From Prevotella sp. (GTDB lineage: Bacteria; Bacteroidota; Bacteroidia; Bacteroidales; Bacteroidaceae): a stretch of 64,000 nt of DNA. The stretch lies in the NCBI GenBank assembly GCA_041855685.1, contig JBHAEQ010000035.1, positions 63,151 to 127,150 on the forward strand, given 5' to 3'. Numbering within the stretch: the first letter of the stretch is position 1; the number at the start of each line of letters is the position of its first letter. The position numbers were made by a program, and so were the translations under genes. Shown piece after piece: positions 23,449-62,822 of this stretch. The notes under the pieces were generated by a model that worked only from the letters and a program-made list of their open reading frames with translations, was not told the origin of the DNA and ran no database searches.

Positions 23449-23526
23449 TAAAAAAGGAGGCTGCCTTCACAGGCAGCCTTCCTATATTTTTTAGTTAATT
23501 AAGGTACGATTGTAAATCAGGATAAC
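23449..23526 (-). ncRNA. Candidate ~78-nt small RNA
   Basis: Minus-strand -7 box TACCTTTG (23538-23531) and CTTG 20 nt upstream; predicted +1 at G23526; ends in the hairpin plus U6; no ORF inside. Confidence 0.55.
23451..23490. terminator. Bidirectional intrinsic terminator
   Basis: GGAGGCTGCCT-tcac-AGGCAGCCTTCC hairpin with an A-run on the left and a T-run on the right. Confidence 0.88.
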
Positions 23527-23804
23527 GATGCAAAGGTATGCATTTAATTTGGTTTTTGCAAGAAAAAAATAGAACTTTTTTGATGGCGTTTGGTTGTGTG
23601 CGTACACAACTTGATATTTTAACAATTAGGAAAGAACAACACCTGAAAATATCTCTATTATTGATATAAAACAAAAAGTTTTGTTGTAAGCTTATCCACC
23701 TTTCCATTCGTTCTTTTTCCGGCAGTTCGTCCATTTTTATCGGCTCAGTCGAAATTTAGTGTGGGAGCTTTCAACTTGAGTTTAAGGAGTTAAGAGGTTA
23801 GAGA

Positions 23805-33405: not shown

Positions 33406-34122
33406 CTATTGATAAATCAAAGTTGGACTGAAGACAAAGGAACCGTCCTTGACAAATATATTACTAAGTTCCATCGACTTGGAGTGGTATTTCAGTACGA
33501 GAATTCCATCTTCGTTTGGCGCCCAATAGGTGTCATTGCCACTGGCATATACCACACCGTTGAAATTGAAACCACCTATACCGTCGAGATGGATGGCATA
33601 GCGCTGCATTAATTCGGAATATTGAATGCTTAGTGTGCCTTCCACCGTGAAGTCTGCATCGAAATGTTTTAAATCAGTCCAAGCAACCTGTGGGATTTGA
33701 CCCAAAGGCTTGCCGGCATAAACCCAGAGATTGTATGCATACCATCCATCGAAAGCCTCTGCTTCTGTGACGAAGTCATCGCCGGAGGAGGTTGCCTTCA
33801 GTTTGAATTTACCAGTGCCCATTCCTGTTCGGGTGTTGACATTGCCCGTCATTTCGAGTCCCTTGTGATTCATTGAGAAATTACCTTCGGCATCGAGGCT
33901 CAGTGTGCGGTTTTCAAAGGCGTCGATGGTGGCATAGCAGCGCTTGTTTGTAGGGAAGCGTATTTCCACCACACCTTTCAGATCGTGAATACCCTCGAGA
34001 TCGAAGTCATAAGTCTCCATGTTGCTCACGCTGTCTTCAAGGTCTTACGGAGGCGTGGCGTTGTCTATGCGGTTCACGGTGAGCGTTTTTTGTCCATCAA
34101 TGGCACTGAGACCGAACTTGCC
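33406..34122 (-). pseudogene. 5'-truncated gene fragment with an internal stop
   Basis: The frame of the 207-aa ORF continues upstream past TAA (34045-34047) as GKFGLSAIDGQKTLTVNRIDNATPP to another stop at 34123-34125; no start or signal peptide. Confidence 0.45.
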
Positions 34123-34194: not shown

Positions 34195-34306
34195 CATGTT
34201 TCTCAATTAAGGTGCACATGTTTCCCAATTGCGGTGCATGTGTTTCCCAATTGAGGCGCATGTGTTTCTCAATTGCGACGCATGTGTTTCCCAATTGGGA
34301 AACATG
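34195..34306. repeat. About five tandem 22-bp repeats ending in a perfect 20-bp palindrome
   Basis: Unit about catgtgtttcccaattgcggtg; last unit extends to TGTTTCCCAATTGGGAAACA. Confidence 0.92.
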
Positions 34307-34412
34307 ATAGGACTAATTGTTTATGGAAATTAAAGTCGTGCTTTGACAGATGTTTATGATAAGGTTCCGCAGATGATATAGATGATATTCGTTGATGCAA
34401 GTGCCTGAAAAT

Positions 34413-34731: not shown

Positions 34732-34822
34732 AATTAACTTTCTTTCTAATTTAAACAATAGGCTCTTTTGTTGTGTGTTATCCTGTTTTTTTTAGAGCCG
34801 TTCTCTTTTTTTTAACTCCGCT

Positions 34823-34903: not shown

Positions 34904-35008
34904 AATAGTACAAATATTTCAATTTAACATGTGCCCCATGTGTGTGTTGTTATCCTGTTCGTGTTTCATGGAGGGGCGTTAACCATGCTTGGAACTCATT
35001 TCCGAGTG

Positions 35009-43490: not shown

Positions 43491-45239
43491 ATGAAATATA
43501 CAATAAATATTTTCGTACTTTTTGCAGTATTGTCTTTCTTTGCATGTAGTACAGACATGCTTAATGTAGCTCCGTATGGAGTGCTTGACGAGGAAGTATT
43601 GGCAAATAGAAAAGGTGTAGAGAAACTTCTGATAGGTTGTTATGCAACATTAGACGGGCAAGCTTCAGATGATTATTATGTATGGAACAACTACTGGGCA
43701 ACTGATGATGCACGAATGGGGTCTAATGCGGGTGTGAATGCTTTTGATGCCTTTTTGGTAAATCCTACATATAGTGAAATTGCTACTCGTTGGAAAACTC
43801 TATATGGCTTTGTCGGCAGATGTAATTCTGTTATCGGACTTTTGCCAGATGTTACAGATATGAGTGACATTGAGAAAGCTCAAGTTGATGCTCAGGCAAA
43901 GTTTATACGTGCTTATACCTATTTCTTCTTGGCTGTTATATGGAAGAATGTGCCATGGATAGACGAAACGATAGACTATGGAAAAAGAAATTTTTTCGTA
44001 TCAAATGTTGATGTAGATATATACTCTAAGATTGAAGAAGACTTGATTTTTGCTTCTGAGAATCTGCCAGAGACTTGGAATGAAATAGGTAAGGTCAATA
44101 AGTGGGCGGCAAAATGTATGCTTGCAAAAACTTATATGTTTCAGAAGAAATTTGCTCAAGCCAAGGAAATTCTGGATGATGTTATTGCTAATGGCAAAAC
44201 AACAAGCGGGCAAAAGTATGCTCTGAATGCAAAGTATAGAGATAATTTCCGTACAGCGACAAAGAATGGCCCTGAAGCTGTATTTGAAGTTCAGATGGCT
44301 GTTAATGACGGTACCACAAATGGAATTAATGGTAATCCAATGAGTTTTATGAATGGAACTTACGATGGTACTGCAAACAACGGATATGGCTGGTATCAAC
44401 CTACATTTGATTTGGTAGATGCATTCCAGACTGATGCTGTAACGGGACTTCCTCTCCTTGATAACTATTATGAGACTCCTATAGTAACCGACTATGGAAT
44501 GTCTTCAACAGAAAGGTTCAGAACCTACACAGGTACACTCGACCCTCGCCTTGACTGGTGTGTGGGTCGTAGAGGAATACCATATCTTGACTGGGGAAAT
44601 CATCCGGGAAAATCGTGGATTAGAAATCAAAACAATGGAGGACCGTATAGTAGTGTTAAGCATACCGCTGAAAAAGCAACCGCAGCTTCTGAACGACAAG
44701 GAACAAATAAAACAAGTGTTCCGTATGATGCTATTAGATTTGCAGATGTTCTTCTGTGGGCAGCTGAGTGTGAGGTAGAAGTAGGCAGTTTGGAAAAAGC
44801 AGAGGAGTATGTAAACATGATACGTCAGAGGGCTTCAAATCCCGACGGTTTTGTGAAGAAGTATTCTAATGGCTCTTTCTTGAGCAGCGATGCCGCAAAC
44901 TACAAAATAGGTCTTTATACTGGACAATTCAGTACTAATGGAAAGTCTTATGCGCGTAAGGCAGTAAGATTTGAGCGCAGGCTTGAGTTGGCTATGGAGC
45001 ATCATCGTTACTTCGACCTTTTGAGATATGATGGTAATGATTTCGATTTGGAAGAATATATGGATACATTCCTAAAGCGTGAAGGAGAAAGACTGACAAA
45101 TAGCCCTAATAACCTTTATCTACAAGGTGACTTTGTTAGAGGAAAACATGAACTATATCCTATTCCGCAAGTAGAAATCGACCGAAGTGTTAGACCTGAC
45201 GGCACTCCTGCTTTGATACAGAATCCAGGTTATAAATAA
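43491..45239 (+). CDS. susD: SusD-like lipoprotein
   Basis: Lipobox FFAC, FIRAYTYF, RFADVLLWAAE, ERRLELAME and QNPGY end. Confidence 0.95.
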   Translation: MKYTINIFVLFAVLSFFACSTDMLNVAPYGVLDEEVLANRKGVEKLLIGCYATLDGQASDDYYVWNNYWATDDARMGSNAGVNAFDAFLVNPTYSEIATRWKTLYGFVGRCNSVIGLLPDVTDMSDIEKAQVDAQAKFIRAYTYFFLAVIWKNVPWIDETIDYGKRNFFVSNVDVDIYSKIEEDLIFASENLPETWNEIGKVNKWAAKCMLAKTYMFQKKFAQAKEILDDVIANGKTTSGQKYALNAKYRDNFRTATKNGPEAVFEVQMAVNDGTTNGINGNPMSFMNGTYDGTANNGYGWYQPTFDLVDAFQTDAVTGLPLLDNYYETPIVTDYGMSSTERFRTYTGTLDPRLDWCVGRRGIPYLDWGNHPGKSWIRNQNNGGPYSSVKHTAEKATAASERQGTNKTSVPYDAIRFADVLLWAAECEVEVGSLEKAEEYVNMIRQRASNPDGFVKKYSNGSFLSSDAANYKIGLYTGQFSTNGKSYARKAVRFERRLELAMEHHRYFDLLRYDGNDFDLEEYMDTFLKREGERLTNSPNNLYLQGDFVRGKHELYPIPQVEIDRSVRPDGTPALIQNPGYK

Positions 45240-48794: not shown

Positions 48795-48903
48795 TTTATT
48801 TTTAGCTTTGAACTTCACTACGCATGTGCGTAACTATGTATGTGCGTATGTGAAGTTTACCTGAATATTATCAGTTTTAACGATAAAAACTAATACTTCT
48901 ATA

Positions 48904-51177
48904 ATGTATAAAATACACCGTCTATCACTATTAACGCTCTTTGTAGGCTTGAGTATTCTCGCTTCATCTGCGCAGAAGAAATGGACTATTGATGATATTC
49001 TGCGTACAGAACGTATTGTATCTTTGGCAATGTCTCCTGATGGTGGGAGAGTGTTTTATCAGACCGGATTTACGGCAGACGGTTATTACCCGGTAAAACC
49101 TTCCAAGTTTTACACTGTAGATGTAGAGGGAAAGGAGGTTATAGAACTTGATATATCCAATGCACAGACTTCTCCAGTTCCTAATTCCCGGGTGCTTCGT
49201 TGGTCTTCAGATTCAAAGTTTATATCATATTATACTATGTCGGCAGGTGGGCAACGACAATTGTGGAAAATATCTGCAATTGGCGGAGAACCACAACAAG
49301 TGATATGTAATAGTCAGTCTATTTCAGAATATGAATGGTCACCTGACGGTCGCTATATAATTTATACGGTAGATGTACCAGTTTCGCAAGAAGAAATAGA
49401 CTATCGCCGTAAATGGGGAATTGTAATTTCTCCAGAAGAGAAGAAATGGCAGAGAAGAAAAGAAATTTGGATAAAGAAATTATTATCAGGAAATGTGTAT
49501 CAACTTACTGAGCCTGTAGTATTGACAAGAGGTCCAAAATGGTCTTTTGATAGTAATGCTGTTGCCTTCATAAGTGTTGATTCTACAGGAATTTCACAGT
49601 TGTATAAACTTCCTGTTGATAGTATTTGTAAGCCAGAACAGATTAGTCATGCAGTGGATAATGTACGTTTCTTTGCTTGGAATCCGTGTGATAATTCTAT
49701 TGCTTATGTTACATCGGAAACAGAAAAGATGCCTTATGTAAACTATCATGAAAATGCGCCATTTCTTCCTGGCTCTATTTGGCTCTATGGAAGTAATGGG
49801 AAGACAAAGCAAATAACAGAATCTTCTTTCCCCCAACTGAATAGCGTTGAATGGAACCATTCTGGTAATCAACTCGCTTTTATAGCTCAATCACCCGCAA
49901 CAGCAGCGCAAAAAGGTTACAATAGATATTTTCAACTGTATATGTATGTCCTTTCTGTTTCCGATGGAGAATTTAAGAAGATTGCTGATGGAATGGATTT
50001 CTTCAGGGGAGGTGAGAATATGACTTGGTCGGGAGACGATAAAGAAATATGGTTCGTTAATGGTGAAGGTGTTGGCTATAATTTGTTTGCGGCAGAAGTC
50101 GCTACAGGTAAGGTGCGACATGTTACTGTGGGTAAGGAATGTATAAATCTGCCAAGTTTCGATCATGCTTTCACAAGGGTTTCGTATTTACGGCAGAGTG
50201 TCAATCTTAAGCCTGATATTTATGTGTCAAATGTTACTTCTTGGAAACCACGATGCATTACTGATATAAATCCGTGGGTAAAAGATTATGCCAATGAAGA
50301 AGGCGAAATCATAAACTATCGTAATGAGGGTTGGGATATAGAGGCTTTGCTCATTAAACCGCCGGGTTTTGATAAACGTAAGAAATATCCTCTTATTGTT
50401 GTTGTCCATGGTGGTCCTAACTGGCATAAGCTAAATGAGTGGCAACCTGACTGGGAGCAATACCCTCTTAAGGCATATGCAGCTGAAGGATACGTTATGC
50501 TTTTTCCTAATTTTCGTGGTAGTGCAAATTATGGTGTTGACTTTATTAAAACAACGCATTATGATTTAGGCGGTCAAGACTATAGAGATGTTATGTGTGG
50601 GGTAGATTATCTTTTGAAACAAGGATATATTGACGAAAAGAGAATGGGAATTTGTGGTTGGAGTTATGGTGGATTTCTTACACCTGCTATAATCACTCGC
50701 ACCAACCGTTTCAAGGCGGCGCAGTTTGGAGCAGGACTCCCAAGTATAGAAGCTATGTACGGAAGTCTATGGACAGTAGAGCGAATATTGCATAAGGCAT
50801 TTGATGACTATCCTTGGAACAATGGCACAATGCATGTACAATATTCTCCACTCTATCATGCTCATAAAGTCAAGACATCTACCCTTATACAACATGGTGA
50901 TAAAGACCCGCGATGTCCTTTAGGAGGCGCAGTATTATTCTACAAAGCTCTTAAATCCTATGGAGTGCCAACTGTCTTGGAGATATATCCCGGCATGGGG
51001 CATAGTATTACTGAACCGTTATTGTATAAAAGAATTTTGACAAAAAATCTCGAATGGTTTAATAAATGGCTTAAGGATGACCGCTCTACATCTTTCGAAA
51101 CATCTTATCCTTATATACAATATCAGTCATGTAAAGATGAGAAAGCAAGTGATAGTATAACGAAATGCAAACATTAA
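48904..51177 (+). CDS. S9 family peptidase (prolyl oligopeptidase/acylpeptide hydrolase-like)
   Basis: Beta-propeller WSxD repeats, VHGGP, GWSYGG nucleophile, HGDKD and GMGH triad. Confidence 0.92.
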   Translation: MYKIHRLSLLTLFVGLSILASSAQKKWTIDDILRTERIVSLAMSPDGGRVFYQTGFTADGYYPVKPSKFYTVDVEGKEVIELDISNAQTSPVPNSRVLRWSSDSKFISYYTMSAGGQRQLWKISAIGGEPQQVICNSQSISEYEWSPDGRYIIYTVDVPVSQEEIDYRRKWGIVISPEEKKWQRRKEIWIKKLLSGNVYQLTEPVVLTRGPKWSFDSNAVAFISVDSTGISQLYKLPVDSICKPEQISHAVDNVRFFAWNPCDNSIAYVTSETEKMPYVNYHENAPFLPGSIWLYGSNGKTKQITESSFPQLNSVEWNHSGNQLAFIAQSPATAAQKGYNRYFQLYMYVLSVSDGEFKKIADGMDFFRGGENMTWSGDDKEIWFVNGEGVGYNLFAAEVATGKVRHVTVGKECINLPSFDHAFTRVSYLRQSVNLKPDIYVSNVTSWKPRCITDINPWVKDYANEEGEIINYRNEGWDIEALLIKPPGFDKRKKYPLIVVVHGGPNWHKLNEWQPDWEQYPLKAYAAEGYVMLFPNFRGSANYGVDFIKTTHYDLGGQDYRDVMCGVDYLLKQGYIDEKRMGICGWSYGGFLTPAIITRTNRFKAAQFGAGLPSIEAMYGSLWTVERILHKAFDDYPWNNGTMHVQYSPLYHAHKVKTSTLIQHGDKDPRCPLGGAVLFYKALKSYGVPTVLEIYPGMGHSITEPLLYKRILTKNLEWFNKWLKDDRSTSFETSYPYIQYQSCKDEKASDSITKCKH

Positions 51178-60344: not shown

Positions 60345-62693
60345 TTAGAATGTAACTCTTGTGCCGAGTGTCATGGTTCTTGGTGCTCCCCAGTATCCTC
60401 TGAATGAGTCAAGGTCGTGAGTGGAACCGTCGGTTCCACGCTCTATATATGAAGCATCAAGCAGGTTGTTGCATGTTGCGAATATGTTTATGCGTACATT
60501 GTCTGATACAGAGCCTTCCCAGCCGAATGTAGCATTAATAAGGTCATAAGCTGGTAATCGGTAGGCATCTTGAGCATCGGCTTTGGTGCGCGTTGATGGT
60601 TCAAAGTCGGCATACATGCGGGCATTGTGTTGCCAATCCAAATGAATGTATATTCCTTTGTACAAGCGGGCATCAGCTTGTGCGCCGAATTGTGTCTGTG
60701 GTGCATCTCCTACATGGAGTCCGTTGCTGTGAATAGAATATTCCTTGAGAGTTTCGCCGCTATATGAGTCGTAAATGATTGCATCGCCATTGCTTTTCCA
60801 TTTCCACGATGCTATCATGGCGTATGCTTTCAGCTTTAGCCAGCTTGCAGCTTGCTGGTAGGCAGAAATTTCTATTCCCTTGTGAAGGGCGTTGAGTCCT
60901 GTTATCTGGTATTTTTCCGTCGCTTCGTTGGCACGCTTTGCAAGGCTTACGGTAAGAGTCTTGTCTTTCCAAGAGGCAATATAGACTGAGGCTTCAAGTC
61001 CGCCGTCGTTCCATGATGTTCGTAGTCCTATTTCGCCGAGTATGTTCTTTTCGTTGGTGACATCTTTGGTTATTGACAGGTTGCTTGATGAGAGATATAC
61101 ACTGGCATAAGGCAGTCGGCTGCTGTAACCTGCATTGGCAAACACATCAACAGAAGGTGTTGAGGGCGTTGTTTGCATCAGGTGATAGAGAATGCCAGCT
61201 TTTATGCTTCCTCCCCAGCCGTGTGCCCATGCACTCTTTTTGCCTGTTATGTCGTTATGTCGTCGATAGTTTCCGTTGAACACTGCTGCTCCCAATGTGG
61301 TGCTTAAACTGCGGTTATTGTATTTTGCTTGTATGAATGCCGATGTGTGGTGGGTAGTTCTTCCATATCGGGCACCGGTGTAGTCACCTATTCCCACATT
61401 CTTCTTCGTAGTGCTGTCATACCAGTAGTCGCCACCGAGAAGGTCGAGAACTTTCATCTTTGACCATGTGTCGTAGTATTGATATTGCATTCCTACGGAG
61501 AGAGTTGCCTCGTTGGTGAGTTTGTAATCTCCCGAAACAATAGCTCCTGCCTGTGTATGTCCTGATAGATAGTCTATCAGTATGTTGTTTGACGCATTGC
61601 CTTCAGCAGTGGCGTTATTGCTGTTCTCCTCTATTACAGAGTTGAAGTCAATATGCCCATCGGCTGTTTGGTGGGCTATTATGCTCTTTTTGCCATATTG
61701 TCCGTATGTAGATCTGCCTCCTCCGTTGGCAATAGCCATGTAGATGGAGTTTTTCATTGAGAAGCGGCTGCCGTCGAGCAGATGCTGCAATGTGAAATAA
61801 GGTTTGTGATAATGATTGCGTGCTATGGAGTATTTGCTGCCGTAAAGATAGCCCCAGTTCTTGGAATATCCGCGTCCGAATCTGCTTATCTCGTCGGCAC
61901 TAAGCTCTGTATTGCGTTGGTCGTGCTCTTCGGGTGAGCCCAAAGCTGTGAATACTAAAGTGTTGGCGGCATTGAGCTGTTTGCTTGCAGAGAGCATGTA
62001 GGAAAATGTTTCTACGTCTGACACCTCTACGAACCCTTTGCCTTGTGTATATGAGAGCATGAGGTCAACATTCCAGTTGTCAGGTAGTTTGCCAGAAGAA
62101 AAGTTTAGCACTCCTTTGGTAAGTCCGTATTCTGTAGTTGTCAATCCGAATGAGCCGTTGGGATTTTCTCTGCCGGTCTTGGTTATTATGTTTACAAGTC
62201 CGCCCATTGATGTGTCGGCAAGCATTGAACCTCCTATGCCTTTCTGAATCTGTACGGCATAAGTTGCATCTGCCAATCCCATCCAGTTGCTCCAATACAT
62301 TGAGCCTGATGTGAGTCCTTGAATAGGAATGCCGTTAAGCATTATGGCAATGTTGTCCTGTTTGAAACCTCTCATGTTGAGCGAGGCATCGCCATAGCTT
62401 CCTGTTGTCGAGGTGGCATAGACTCCGGGTACGCCTTGCATCATCTCCACATAGTTGGGAGCAGCGGCATGCAGCCTGATATCACGTGGAGTGATAGTGG
62501 TCAGGGTGAGCGGTGTCACCTCTTCTTTACTAAAGTTTACACGAACCGATACCTCCTGAAGAGTAATAGGTGTATCGTTTGATAGAGAAACATGTACGGC
62601 ATCGTTTGTGCCGTCTTTCTTGCCTGTGCCCTCGGCACCTGCAAGTTGTGTGGACATAATCATGCCCAGCAAAACAACAAACTTTTTCATCAT
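60345..62693 (-). CDS. TonB-dependent receptor, non-SusC; candidate riboflavin/flavin transporter
   Basis: Signal peptide, plug GSYGDASLNMRGFKQDNIAIMLNGIP...YWSNW, terminal GTRVTF; directly under an FMN riboswitch. Confidence 0.9.
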   Translation of the reverse strand: MMKKFVVLLGMIMSTQLAGAEGTGKKDGTNDAVHVSLSNDTPITLQEVSVRVNFSKEEVTPLTLTTITPRDIRLHAAAPNYVEMMQGVPGVYATSTTGSYGDASLNMRGFKQDNIAIMLNGIPIQGLTSGSMYWSNWMGLADATYAVQIQKGIGGSMLADTSMGGLVNIITKTGRENPNGSFGLTTTEYGLTKGVLNFSSGKLPDNWNVDLMLSYTQGKGFVEVSDVETFSYMLSASKQLNAANTLVFTALGSPEEHDQRNTELSADEISRFGRGYSKNWGYLYGSKYSIARNHYHKPYFTLQHLLDGSRFSMKNSIYMAIANGGGRSTYGQYGKKSIIAHQTADGHIDFNSVIEENSNNATAEGNASNNILIDYLSGHTQAGAIVSGDYKLTNEATLSVGMQYQYYDTWSKMKVLDLLGGDYWYDSTTKKNVGIGDYTGARYGRTTHHTSAFIQAKYNNRSLSTTLGAAVFNGNYRRHNDITGKKSAWAHGWGGSIKAGILYHLMQTTPSTPSVDVFANAGYSSRLPYASVYLSSSNLSITKDVTNEKNILGEIGLRTSWNDGGLEASVYIASWKDKTLTVSLAKRANEATEKYQITGLNALHKGIEISAYQQAASWLKLKAYAMIASWKWKSNGDAIIYDSYSGETLKEYSIHSNGLHVGDAPQTQFGAQADARLYKGIYIHLDWQHNARMYADFEPSTRTKADAQDAYRLPAYDLINATFGWEGSVSDNVRINIFATCNNLLDASYIERGTDGSTHDLDSFRGYWGAPRTMTLGTRVTF

Positions 62694-62694
62694 T

Positions 62695-62803
62695 TTCTTC
62701 TTTCATCCAGACTTTAACTGTCGGTACCGTAGTTGCAACGGTTCGGCCTTATGGCTTGCGGACTATACCGCCGATCGGGAATTGCACCCTGCCCTGAAGA
62801 GTT
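62695..62803 (-). ncRNA. FMN riboswitch (RFN element)
   Basis: Minus strand UCUUCAGGGCAGGGUGCAAUUCCCGAUCGGCGGUAUAGUCCGC...CCGACAGUUAAAGUCUGGAUGAAAGAAGA matches the RFN consensus; P1 UCUUC/GAAGA. Confidence 0.96.
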
Positions 62804-62822
62804 AATATATAAAATTCGACTG

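Follow-up and report, generated by a model that had tools for sequence, protein, structure and literature searches.

The 64,000-nucleotide (nt) stretch of Prevotella sp. DNA analysed here (the window; contig JBHAEQ010000035.1 of GCA_041855685.1, positions 63,151 to 127,150) very probably contains, at 23526-23449 on the minus strand, a real gene for a regulatory RNA of about 77 nt. Judged by its sequence, this element is a new, third and most divergent genome copy in a known small RNA (sRNA) family without characterised function, which links ScnR157 and ScnR112 of Segatella copri and BTnc060 of Bacteroides thetaiotaomicron. It is probable, if well short of certain, that the element is a trans-acting sRNA of this ScnR157/BTnc060 family, with its own Bacteroidota-type promoter and terminator, and that it has 5′ seeds pairing with motifs in mRNA leaders.

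The family assignment comes from a covariance model, R1, built from 24 aligned relatives with the window sequence excluded. R1 matches 23526-23449 of the minus strand across all of its positions (1-89 of 89; 46.6 bits, E=4e-7), and this full-length match to an independent model places the element in the ScnR157/BTnc060 family. A pattern for the 18-nt 5′ motif, GTTATCCTGAN{1,4}ACAATC, was found in 369 of the 401 genomes searched in the genus (181 of the 183 of high quality), usually in one to three copies per genome; the reversed pattern, used as a control, gave no match. The window genome carries three copies (in the window, at C18:44622 and at C54:49109), each with TAnnTTTG, 4 nt and GTTATCCTGA. 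The first-pass annotation had described the RNA as an orphan. Given the R1 match and the counts in the genus, it is instead one of three copies in a family that extends across the Bacteroidales.

DNA searches of relatives with the whole sRNA locus returned short matches only, with no conservation of the locus as a whole, and the short matches to a 201-nt locus query cover exactly the -7 box and the first ~30 nt. In the matched relatives the motif stands behind the same promoter and ahead of a separate terminator. The alignment of the 24 relatives shows a near-invariant, unstructured 5′ region of ~55 nt, GUUAUCCUGAA[A/U]ACAAUCUUUUUACCUUAA...ACUAAUACCUAUUGA, and no conserved structure was found in its first 58 columns. 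The seed GUUAUCCUG is identical in all 24 sequences, and GUUAUCCUGA is invariant in the genus. The terminator hairpin has compensatory changes in 9 of 12 stem pairs, and its apex is always a GNRA loop (GUGA, GAGA or GCGA) closed by CU..AG. Across the order, 27 of the 301 genomes sampled, from 18 of 209 genera, contain a match to the model. The order-wide conserved core is ACAAUCUUUUUUACCUUAA..UAAUACCUAUUGAAAACC, with ACAAUCUUUUUACCUUAA..UAAUACCUAUUGA near-invariant; the extreme 5′ end varies, being nnUAACCUAAAAC in most families and GUUAUCCUGAAAAC in the family of the window.

The sRNA locus in the window has the following parts, all on the minus strand:

23562-23559: -33 element CTTG, with a 20-nt spacer to the -7 box; relatives have TTTG at the same spacing
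23538-23531: -7 promoter box TACCTTTG (TAnnTTTG), read from the sequence, 4 nt (CATC) ahead of +1
23526: predicted +1, a G, the first base of GTTATCCTG (23526-23518; RNA form GUUAUCCUG)
23526-23449: sRNA gene of ~77 nt (77-78 predicted), from the R1 match and a partial alignment to RF04184
23526-23518: 5′ seed GUUAUCCUG, sRNA nt 1-9, the exact complement of CAGGAUAAC
23479-23450: intrinsic terminator, with stem 23479-23458, CU-GUGA-AG apex, CC and U-run 23455-23450 (TTTTTT)
23609-23594: perfect palindrome TTGTGTACGCACACAA, ~70-85 nt upstream of +1, also listed as a hairpin in the scan

Downstream of CATC the strand reads GTTATCCTGATTTACAATCGTACCTTAATTAACTAAAAAATATAGG. The locus thus has its own TAnnTTTG promoter, from which transcription in Prevotella sp. 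would start on the G of GUUAUCCUG, a +1 that is annotated in S. copri (see below). Promoter box and spacing are identical in ~30 relatives and in both other copies of the window genome. The terminator apex GCCUGUGAAGGC, followed by a U6 run, is the GNRA loop closed by CU..AG that is typical of the family. On re-reading, all coordinates first given for promoter, +1, terminator and the three complementary sites discussed below proved correct to the base.

A TGTGTnCGnACACA-type palindrome, perfect or near-perfect, lies equally distant upstream of all three copies in the window genome (C18 ~44525-44545 and C54 ~49025-49045 for the other two), as well as upstream of ScnR157-type orthologues (11 of 39 loci). 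The other copy type, BTnc060-like loci included, has ATATGTTnnnnAACATAT at about -55 in its place. From their sequences, the two palindromes are candidate operators for two different regulators.

The surroundings of the gene deserve a brief description. Terminator-like sites were found by the scan on both strands, and the one on the plus strand ends the convergent PfkB fructokinase gene of the neighbouring fructan locus (GH32/MFS/PfkB). Beyond this shared terminator, no functional link of the sRNA to this polysaccharide utilization locus (PUL) was found. SrcF, a fructan-regulated sRNA of S. copri, was considered because of the adjacent fructan PUL and rejected: it is a different RNA, ScnR276, of 272 nt. 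An ATG open reading frame (ORF) of 79 codons at 23495-23734 on the minus strand runs across the promoter and the 5′ half of the sRNA; as relatives do not conserve the locus as DNA, it is probably not a gene. At 48855-48909 on the plus strand, in a PUL intergenic spacer directly ahead of an ATG at 48904, there is a weak sense-strand likeness to the sRNA 5′ region (GUUUACCUGAAUA...AAAAACUAAUAC; 19 bits, E=0.079). This resemblance is probably due to chance, because neither a TAnnTTTG box nor a terminator is present. An Rfam scan of the window at gathering thresholds had an FMN riboswitch (62691-62805) as its sole match.

A counterpart to the predicted start is found in the transcriptome of S. copri HDD04 (El Mouali et al., bioRxiv 10.1101/2024.04.05.588293), the source for ScnR157 and ScnR112. 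Its Table S2 lists srna157 at 1456361-1456504(+), with the 5′ end of ScnR157 annotated from differential RNA sequencing, and srna112 at 994958-995042(+). In our relative G296, the family motif starts at C1:1456361 and C1:994956; judging from these matching coordinates, G296 is evidently the assembly used in the preprint. Therefore the 5′ end of ScnR157 is the G of GUUAUCCUG/GTTATCCTG, which puts the seed at the extreme 5′ end of the RNA in this relative, and ScnR112 is a second copy of the family. The annotated start also bears, indirectly and through a relative, on the concern that +1 might lie downstream of the seed: it does not in ScnR157. The forward primer for the ScnR157 Northern riboprobe, CAGTTATCCTGAAAACAATCTTTTTACCT, begins on the family 5′ sequence (10.1101/2024.04.05.588293). 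S. copri HDD04 has three family copies in all, at G296 C1:1456361, 994956 and ~778150.

The same preprint describes ScnR157 as an intergenic RNA expressed throughout growth and strongly conserved in Segatella, with partly conserved synteny; Northern blots showed it in S. copri as well as in three other species of Segatella, and it is among the sRNAs most down-regulated in human stool (10.1101/2024.04.05.588293). ScnR112 and ScnR157 are listed there as separate sRNAs, and no function or target is given for ScnR157 (10.1101/2024.04.05.588293).

Comparison of relatives may provide a clue regarding the target. In G090, two AGGATAAC motifs, one of them in the loop of a GGGGC...GCCCC hairpin, precede the gene for a 119-amino-acid (aa) protein with a signal peptide. 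A search of the genus found that tandem AGGATAAC clusters are all located in the 5′ untranslated region (5′UTR) of orthologues of that same protein, 30-50 nt ahead of the AUG. By contrast with these clusters, the count of single AACAGGATAACA sites in 301 genomes is uninformative, because many of the matches lie inside one conserved coding gene. For a bias-free follow-up, the loci were collected by a protein profile search, which matched 101 of 151 genomes; 67 loci were examined and 61 of them had leaders of the main family. In these 61 leaders, AGGATAAC is the most widespread 8-mer of all, with 69 sites in 42 leaders and up to five tandem copies in a leader. As in the window, it is often placed inside a hairpin loop. 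The promoter box TACCTTTG is present in 23 of the 61. Eighteen of the 19 leaders without a perfect 8-mer carry a one-base variant (AGGATAAT ten times, GGGATAAC four times, AGGGTAAC three times, AGGATGAC and AGGTTAAC once each), and all of these variants except AGGTTAAC are A>G or C>U changes that keep a G.U pair with GUUAUCCU.

A second kind of site is found at the translation start. Around the AUG (-30..+24), 39 of the 61 leaders contain 12 nt or more that match sRNA nt 10-28 as a perfect complement, for example AUG-AAAAAGAUUGUUUU or, in the S. copri group, AAGGTAAAAAGATT-ATG and AAGGUAAAAAGAUU-AUG. The candidate pairing sites in the S. copri-type 5′UTR are the AGGAUAAC/AGGAUAAU sites together with the AAGGUAAAAAGAUU-AUG site. 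Taken as a whole, 89% of the 61 leaders are more complementary to the sRNA than 99% of the dinucleotide shuffles made from them (median z 5.5). These data, together with the invariance of GUUAUCCUGA, indicate that seed and target motif are conserved together in relatives, and they support the multi-site 5′-seed arrangement proposed in the first-pass annotation, with pairing and regulation as its conditional part.

The exported protein itself is poorly described. In the databases it is named only 'hypothetical protein [Prevotella sp.]' and belongs to no Pfam family. One of its genes is G116:C1:1014193-1014543. An LTXXQ/CpxP identity was considered and dropped, as there were only weak hints (E 0.015-0.03) and no PDB sequence match, and a Foldseek search with its AlphaFold model (mostly helical, pLDDT 69) gave no significant match. 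Many of its genes (loci L089-L094 and L102-L117) are preceded by TTAAACC-N~14-GCGTCAAAG, upstream of the tandem AGGATAAC arrays. This sequence resembles a promoter of an extracytoplasmic function sigma factor (AAC / CGTC). A second group of orthologues has TAnnTTTGCAcCGTCAAAAG in its place. At locus L040 of G090 (2022-2930), the next gene after that for the exported protein encodes a lipoprotein-type peptidase; it has an HEIAH motif and looks M48-like by eye.

Other lineages extend the picture. The orthologous leader of the Bacteroides-like genus g26 contains UUUUCAAUAGGUAUUAGUUUUU, which is perfectly complementary to the third sRNA block over 22 nt; GGUAAAAAG follows directly on its promoter. 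The leader of G652 reaches a free energy of -44 kcal/mol with its sRNA (z -7.9, 0 of 1000 shuffles), and that of G532 has z values of -7.6 and -5.7. For G650, of family f131, the leader is almost perfectly complementary to CUAAACAAUCUUUUUGCCUUAAAG over ~24 nt (z -5.5). In G530 of the same family, the sRNA begins with AGAUAACCUAAAC and the leader carries GUUUAGGUU instead of CAGGAUAAC, so that both sides differ: Bacteroidaceae have UAUCCUG with CAGGAUA, f131 has UAACCUA with UAGGUU. This is one lineage contrast. The complementarity in orthologous targets is conserved to a degree that exceeds chance, and both sides have changed, as would be expected of a base-pairing sRNA. Moreover, the complementary blocks in the leaders are ordered differently from the sRNA antisense; they are therefore separate sites and not an inverted copy of the gene. 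This is the strongest argument that base-pairing with the exported-protein leader is under conservation. In most of the other families searched, no homologue of the exported protein was detectable.

Together, these observations are consistent with the following mechanism. Family members consist of the ~55-nt unstructured, near-invariant 5′ region and then only the terminator hairpin, and the 5′ region would serve as a set of base-pairing seeds. Nucleotides 1-9 (GUUAUCCUG) would pair with (C)AGGAUAAC motifs that mRNA leaders expose, in loops or in unpaired stretches, and nt 10-28 with the region around the start codon. For most species of the genus, sites of both kinds are located in the 5′UTR of a single gene, that for the ~119-aa exported helical protein. 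The likely outcome would be a blocked translation start, a less stable mRNA, or both, a direction that we infer because the sites are located at the translation start. Up to five upstream sites may add binding capacity.

In the window genome, the likely local partner, on sequence grounds, is a predicted transcript with two micro-ORFs 11 kb away from the sRNA gene. It may be an mRNA whose micro-ORFs are regulated, or a decoy titrating the three sRNA copies. Its relevant features, again on the minus strand, are:

35016-35009: promoter box TAATTTTG, read from the sequence
34977-34933: leader hairpin 1, with CAGGAUAAC (34957-34949) in its loop, ~45 nt ahead of micro-ORF 1 (34903-34823)
34799-34761: leader hairpin 2, with CAGGAUAAC (34785-34777) in its loop, ~45 nt ahead of micro-ORF 2 (34731-34645)
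34485-34455: site 3, AGGAUAAC (34462-34455) plus upstream UAAUUGAGGUA, directly ahead of the transcript terminator hairpin 34450-34413

The micro-ORFs have 26 and 28 codons. The 9-nt 5′ end of the sRNA is, as first reported, the exact reverse complement of the loop motif at 34957-34949 and 34785-34777, with an 8-mer match at 34462-34455. In DNA terms, CAGGATAAC occurs exactly three times in the window, at 23518-23526(+), 34777-34785(-) and 34949-34957(-), and the 8-mer AGGATAAC also at 34462-34455(-). In the predicted fold of 35005-34400(-), sites 1 and 2 are in hairpin loops and all three are in unpaired stretches, with mean unpaired probabilities of 0.70, 0.88 and 0.79 for sites 1, 2 and 3 against 0.48 for the whole transcript. 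By prediction, then, both partners are accessible, as the seed lies in a 5′ region free of conserved structure and the sites are 0.70-0.88 unpaired. A 9-bp seed duplex of -14.1 kcal/mol is predicted at each of sites 1 and 2. The sRNA copy from the window itself would pair best with the transcript at site 3 (8 bp, 11 bp with one G.U, and 3 bp; -23.7 kcal/mol), compared with a mean of -15.8, a standard deviation of 2.3 and a minimum of -23.2 kcal/mol for 200 shuffles. The window copy can pair here through nt 1-8 and, uniquely, UACCUUAAUUA.

Leader 2 and the first codons of its ORF are 77% identical over 74 nt to the exported-protein leader of G090 (E=5e-8). The window genome, which lacks the exported protein, keeps two homologous leader hairpins ahead of 26- and 28-codon ORFs; close to its 3′ end, the transcript has a third site, which is bipartite. 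Searches of relatives with the micro-ORF locus gave short DNA matches only. The idea that the locus is a decayed copy of the exported-protein gene was rejected, as hmmsearch at maximum sensitivity gave E>0.3. Between the terminator of the micro-ORF transcript and the next gene (33406-34029, no Pfam match) there is a tandem array at 34195-34319, with a period of 22 nt, ~4.7 copies, 86% matches and the unit CATGTTTCCCAATTGAGGTGCA. Elsewhere in the window genome, at C41:14066-14077 (-), a tRNA(CAU) gene has AACAGGATAACAA in its 5′ leader, immediately behind a TACCTTTG promoter; by its sequence this is a possible tRNA-precursor decoy site.

The decoy idea can be taken further. Multi-site leaders in general might be titration devices, in which, in most species, an inducible mRNA with up to five sites and a promoter resembling that of an extracytoplasmic function sigma factor soaks up a constitutive, abundant sRNA and de-represses its other targets. 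In the window genome, the leader-plus-micro-ORF transcript would then have been kept as a dedicated decoy after loss of the protein-coding part, with the divergent local sRNA copy co-adapted to site 3. We regard this extension as tentative and rather unlikely as a whole.

The divergence of the window copy raises a similarly doubtful alternative, namely that it is a decaying, poorly expressed or non-functional duplicate, that the C18 and C54 copies do the work, and that its 9-mer match is inherited from the family and not maintained for this copy. The variant GAUUUACAAUCGUACC is found in the window genome alone; no other occurrence turned up in the genome and metagenome collections, where one Bacteroides match lies in a coding region. 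The model score is below that of a canonical copy (46.6 vs 70.6 bits), the -33 element is CTTG instead of TTTG, and the nt 19-23 and nt 40-50 blocks have deletions. Of the conserved 5′ blocks, GUUAUCCUGA is complete, ACAAUCUUUUUACCUUAA is partial (ACAAUC-G-UACCUUAA) and ACUAAUACCUAUUGA is cut to AACUAA. Yet in the R1 alignment the copy keeps GUUAUCCUGA, ACAAUC, UACCUUAA, AACUAA and the terminator apex, and its promoter box and spacing, the context of +1, the first 10 nt, the upstream palindrome and the whole terminator with its GNRA apex are intact. Its copy-specific UACCUUAAUUA also lengthens the site-3 pairing beyond all 200 shuffles, which argues against simple decay.

Less probable still is the possibility that AGGAUAAC in the leaders is a cis element with another reader (an RNA-binding protein, the ribosome or, for direct repeats in DNA, a transcription factor), and that complementarity to the sRNA is incidental. 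It is true that the conserved AAC...A flanks of AGGAUAAC cannot pair with the sRNA, and that tandem copies 12-17 nt apart look like direct-repeat operators. However, the repeats are downstream of predicted promoters, within the transcript, and the same leaders carry a 12-14 nt complement to the second sRNA block at the AUG. Moreover, the AGGATAAC variants are those that keep G.U pairs, and in other lineages the leader of the same gene matches different sRNA blocks (22 nt perfect).

It is improbable, in our view, that the family acts mainly by protein binding or titration in the manner of CsrB or 6S RNA, with the 55 invariant nt as a protein interface and mRNA pairing secondary. The near-total invariance of ~55 unstructured nt in the genus, and of ACAAUCUUUUUACCUUAA..UAAUACCUAUUGA in the order, does exceed the needs of most seeds, and the sRNA is more widespread than its proposed target. 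However, no repeated protein-binding motif or structured domain was found in the family alignment, and one orthologous leader has highly significant antisense matches in three lineages.

Least probable of all is that a real sRNA merely shares a 9-mer by chance with an unrelated duplicated leader: two of 100 shuffles of the window reach three matches and AGGATAAC has no genome-wide enrichment, but leader 2 is homologous to the motif-bearing exported-protein leader of G090 and the motif is placed in a hairpin loop as in many relatives.

A number of observations weigh against a base-pairing sRNA with conserved leader targets. First, several concern the window genome. The profile search found no match for the exported protein in this genome (93% complete), and the micro-ORF locus resembles that protein only in the leader and the MKKI start. 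The expectation for CAGGATAAC in the window is 0.49 matches. Outside sRNA genes, intergenic CAGGATAAC is limited to the two duplicated leaders and the one tRNA leader, and the two leader sites are not independent, as they come from a duplicated unit. In 5′ regions of the genome, AGGATAAC shows no enrichment (7 sites against a mean of 4.5 for shuffled 8-mers), and the window variant, unique and without much of the nt 10-28 seed, could for these reasons be drifting. Second, in relatives, the sRNA is present in 181 of 183 genomes and the proposed target in 51 of 74, so that other targets or functions must exist. The conserved motif flanks (AAC-AGGAUAAC-A) are not explained by pairing, and the wobble-compatible variants represent few independent events, transitions being the commonest substitutions anyway. 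Third, beyond the genus, a motif test in family f2 gave no enrichment of the expected complement, and the genus alone has tandem arrays; in 24 genomes outside the family, none of TTAGGTTA was found.

The genome-wide view of the window genome adds little. A complementarity scan found nothing beyond chance; about four matches of at least 12 nt lie at or near gene starts, among 1975 gene calls. A dispersed repeat of ~190 nt containing ...GCAAATATGAGAAAATAGAAGCATTAGGATAACC... has at least 10 copies in this genome (for example at C3:21218, C19:30800, C20:10017 and C33:30196) and supplies most of its intergenic AGGATAAC matches; it is unrelated to the leader motif. The first-pass annotation had warned that one 9-mer can occur by chance in 64 kb. 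Within the window genome alone this caveat stands, whereas the evidence from relatives lifts the observation above chance.

The family is among the most conserved small RNAs of gut Bacteroidales, and members have been detected by Northern blot in both S. copri and B. thetaiotaomicron. What is new here is a hypothesis about its target, both concrete and conserved: the leader of the gene for a small exported protein, where the sites of pairing are defined. With it, the function of the family becomes testable in the genetically tractable S. copri or B. thetaiotaomicron. The hypothesis would also explain two odd features of the window, namely a promoter-terminator unit beside a fructan PUL and hairpin-loop motifs ahead of two micro-ORFs. 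A literature search returned no function or target for any family member and no pairing or regulation experiment.

Among described RNAs, ScnR157 and the window copy share the promoter layout, the same G at the annotated or predicted +1, the 5′ end GUUAUCCUGAAAACAAUCUUUUUACCU and the terminator apex CUGUGAAG. They differ in length, ScnR157 having ~90 nt to its first terminator (annotated 144 nt) against 77 nt in the window copy. The latter has GAUUUACAAUCG-UACC where ScnR157 has GAAAACAAUCUUUUUACC, and is without most of the CUAAUACCUAUUGA block. In BTnc060 (Rfam RF04184), the 3′ ~95 nt of the consensus are the same RNA, with GuuauCCUGAAAACAAUCUUUUUACCUUAAAA..ACUAAUACCUAUUGAAAAC and the terminator, whereas the 213-nt model also has an upstream part of ~118 nt that is absent from the window, and the upstream palindrome is of the ATATGTTnnnnAACATAT instead of the TGTGTnCGnACACA type. 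The 3′ half of RF04184 matches the window at 35.3 bits (E=2e-4, model positions 61-213 only), below the gathering score of 228.9. On this model, ScnR157 of S. copri reaches 68.5 bits, and 168-192 bits are reached by Bacteroides-like relatives from the same GTDB family; thus the cut-off delimits close Bacteroides relatives of the 213-nt form and not the wider family. The S. copri preprint reports little sRNA conservation beyond the S. copri complex (10.1101/2024.04.05.588293), yet ScnR157 is homologous to the 3′ part of BTnc060. In B. thetaiotaomicron, BTnc060 has been validated by Northern blot, with isoforms; it is growth-phase dependent, up in mucus-adherent cells, and was termed an 'uncharacterized candidate'. 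Two other Rfam models gave matches below their gathering scores: FopS (RF04319; 22.6 bits against 56), with a terminator-borne match, and GibS (RF04182; 23.4 bits against 115), which matches the terminator only and has no sequence relationship to the window sRNA.

Two known modes of action may be compared with the one proposed here. Enterobacteria have sRNA sponges or decoys, such as the tRNA-spacer 3′ETS-leuZ and SroC. Like these, the micro-ORF transcript has several seed-complementary sites and little or no coding capacity; unlike in these, titration is here a proposal, and the micro-ORF sites could equally be ordinary regulatory target sites. In GibS and other 5′-seed sRNAs of Bacteroides, a single-stranded conserved 5′ region reportedly pairs with translation-initiation regions without Hfq, according to published work on B. 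thetaiotaomicron. This 5′-seed action is the mode that we propose for the window family, which differs from GibS in having several seeds and up to five tandem sites per leader.

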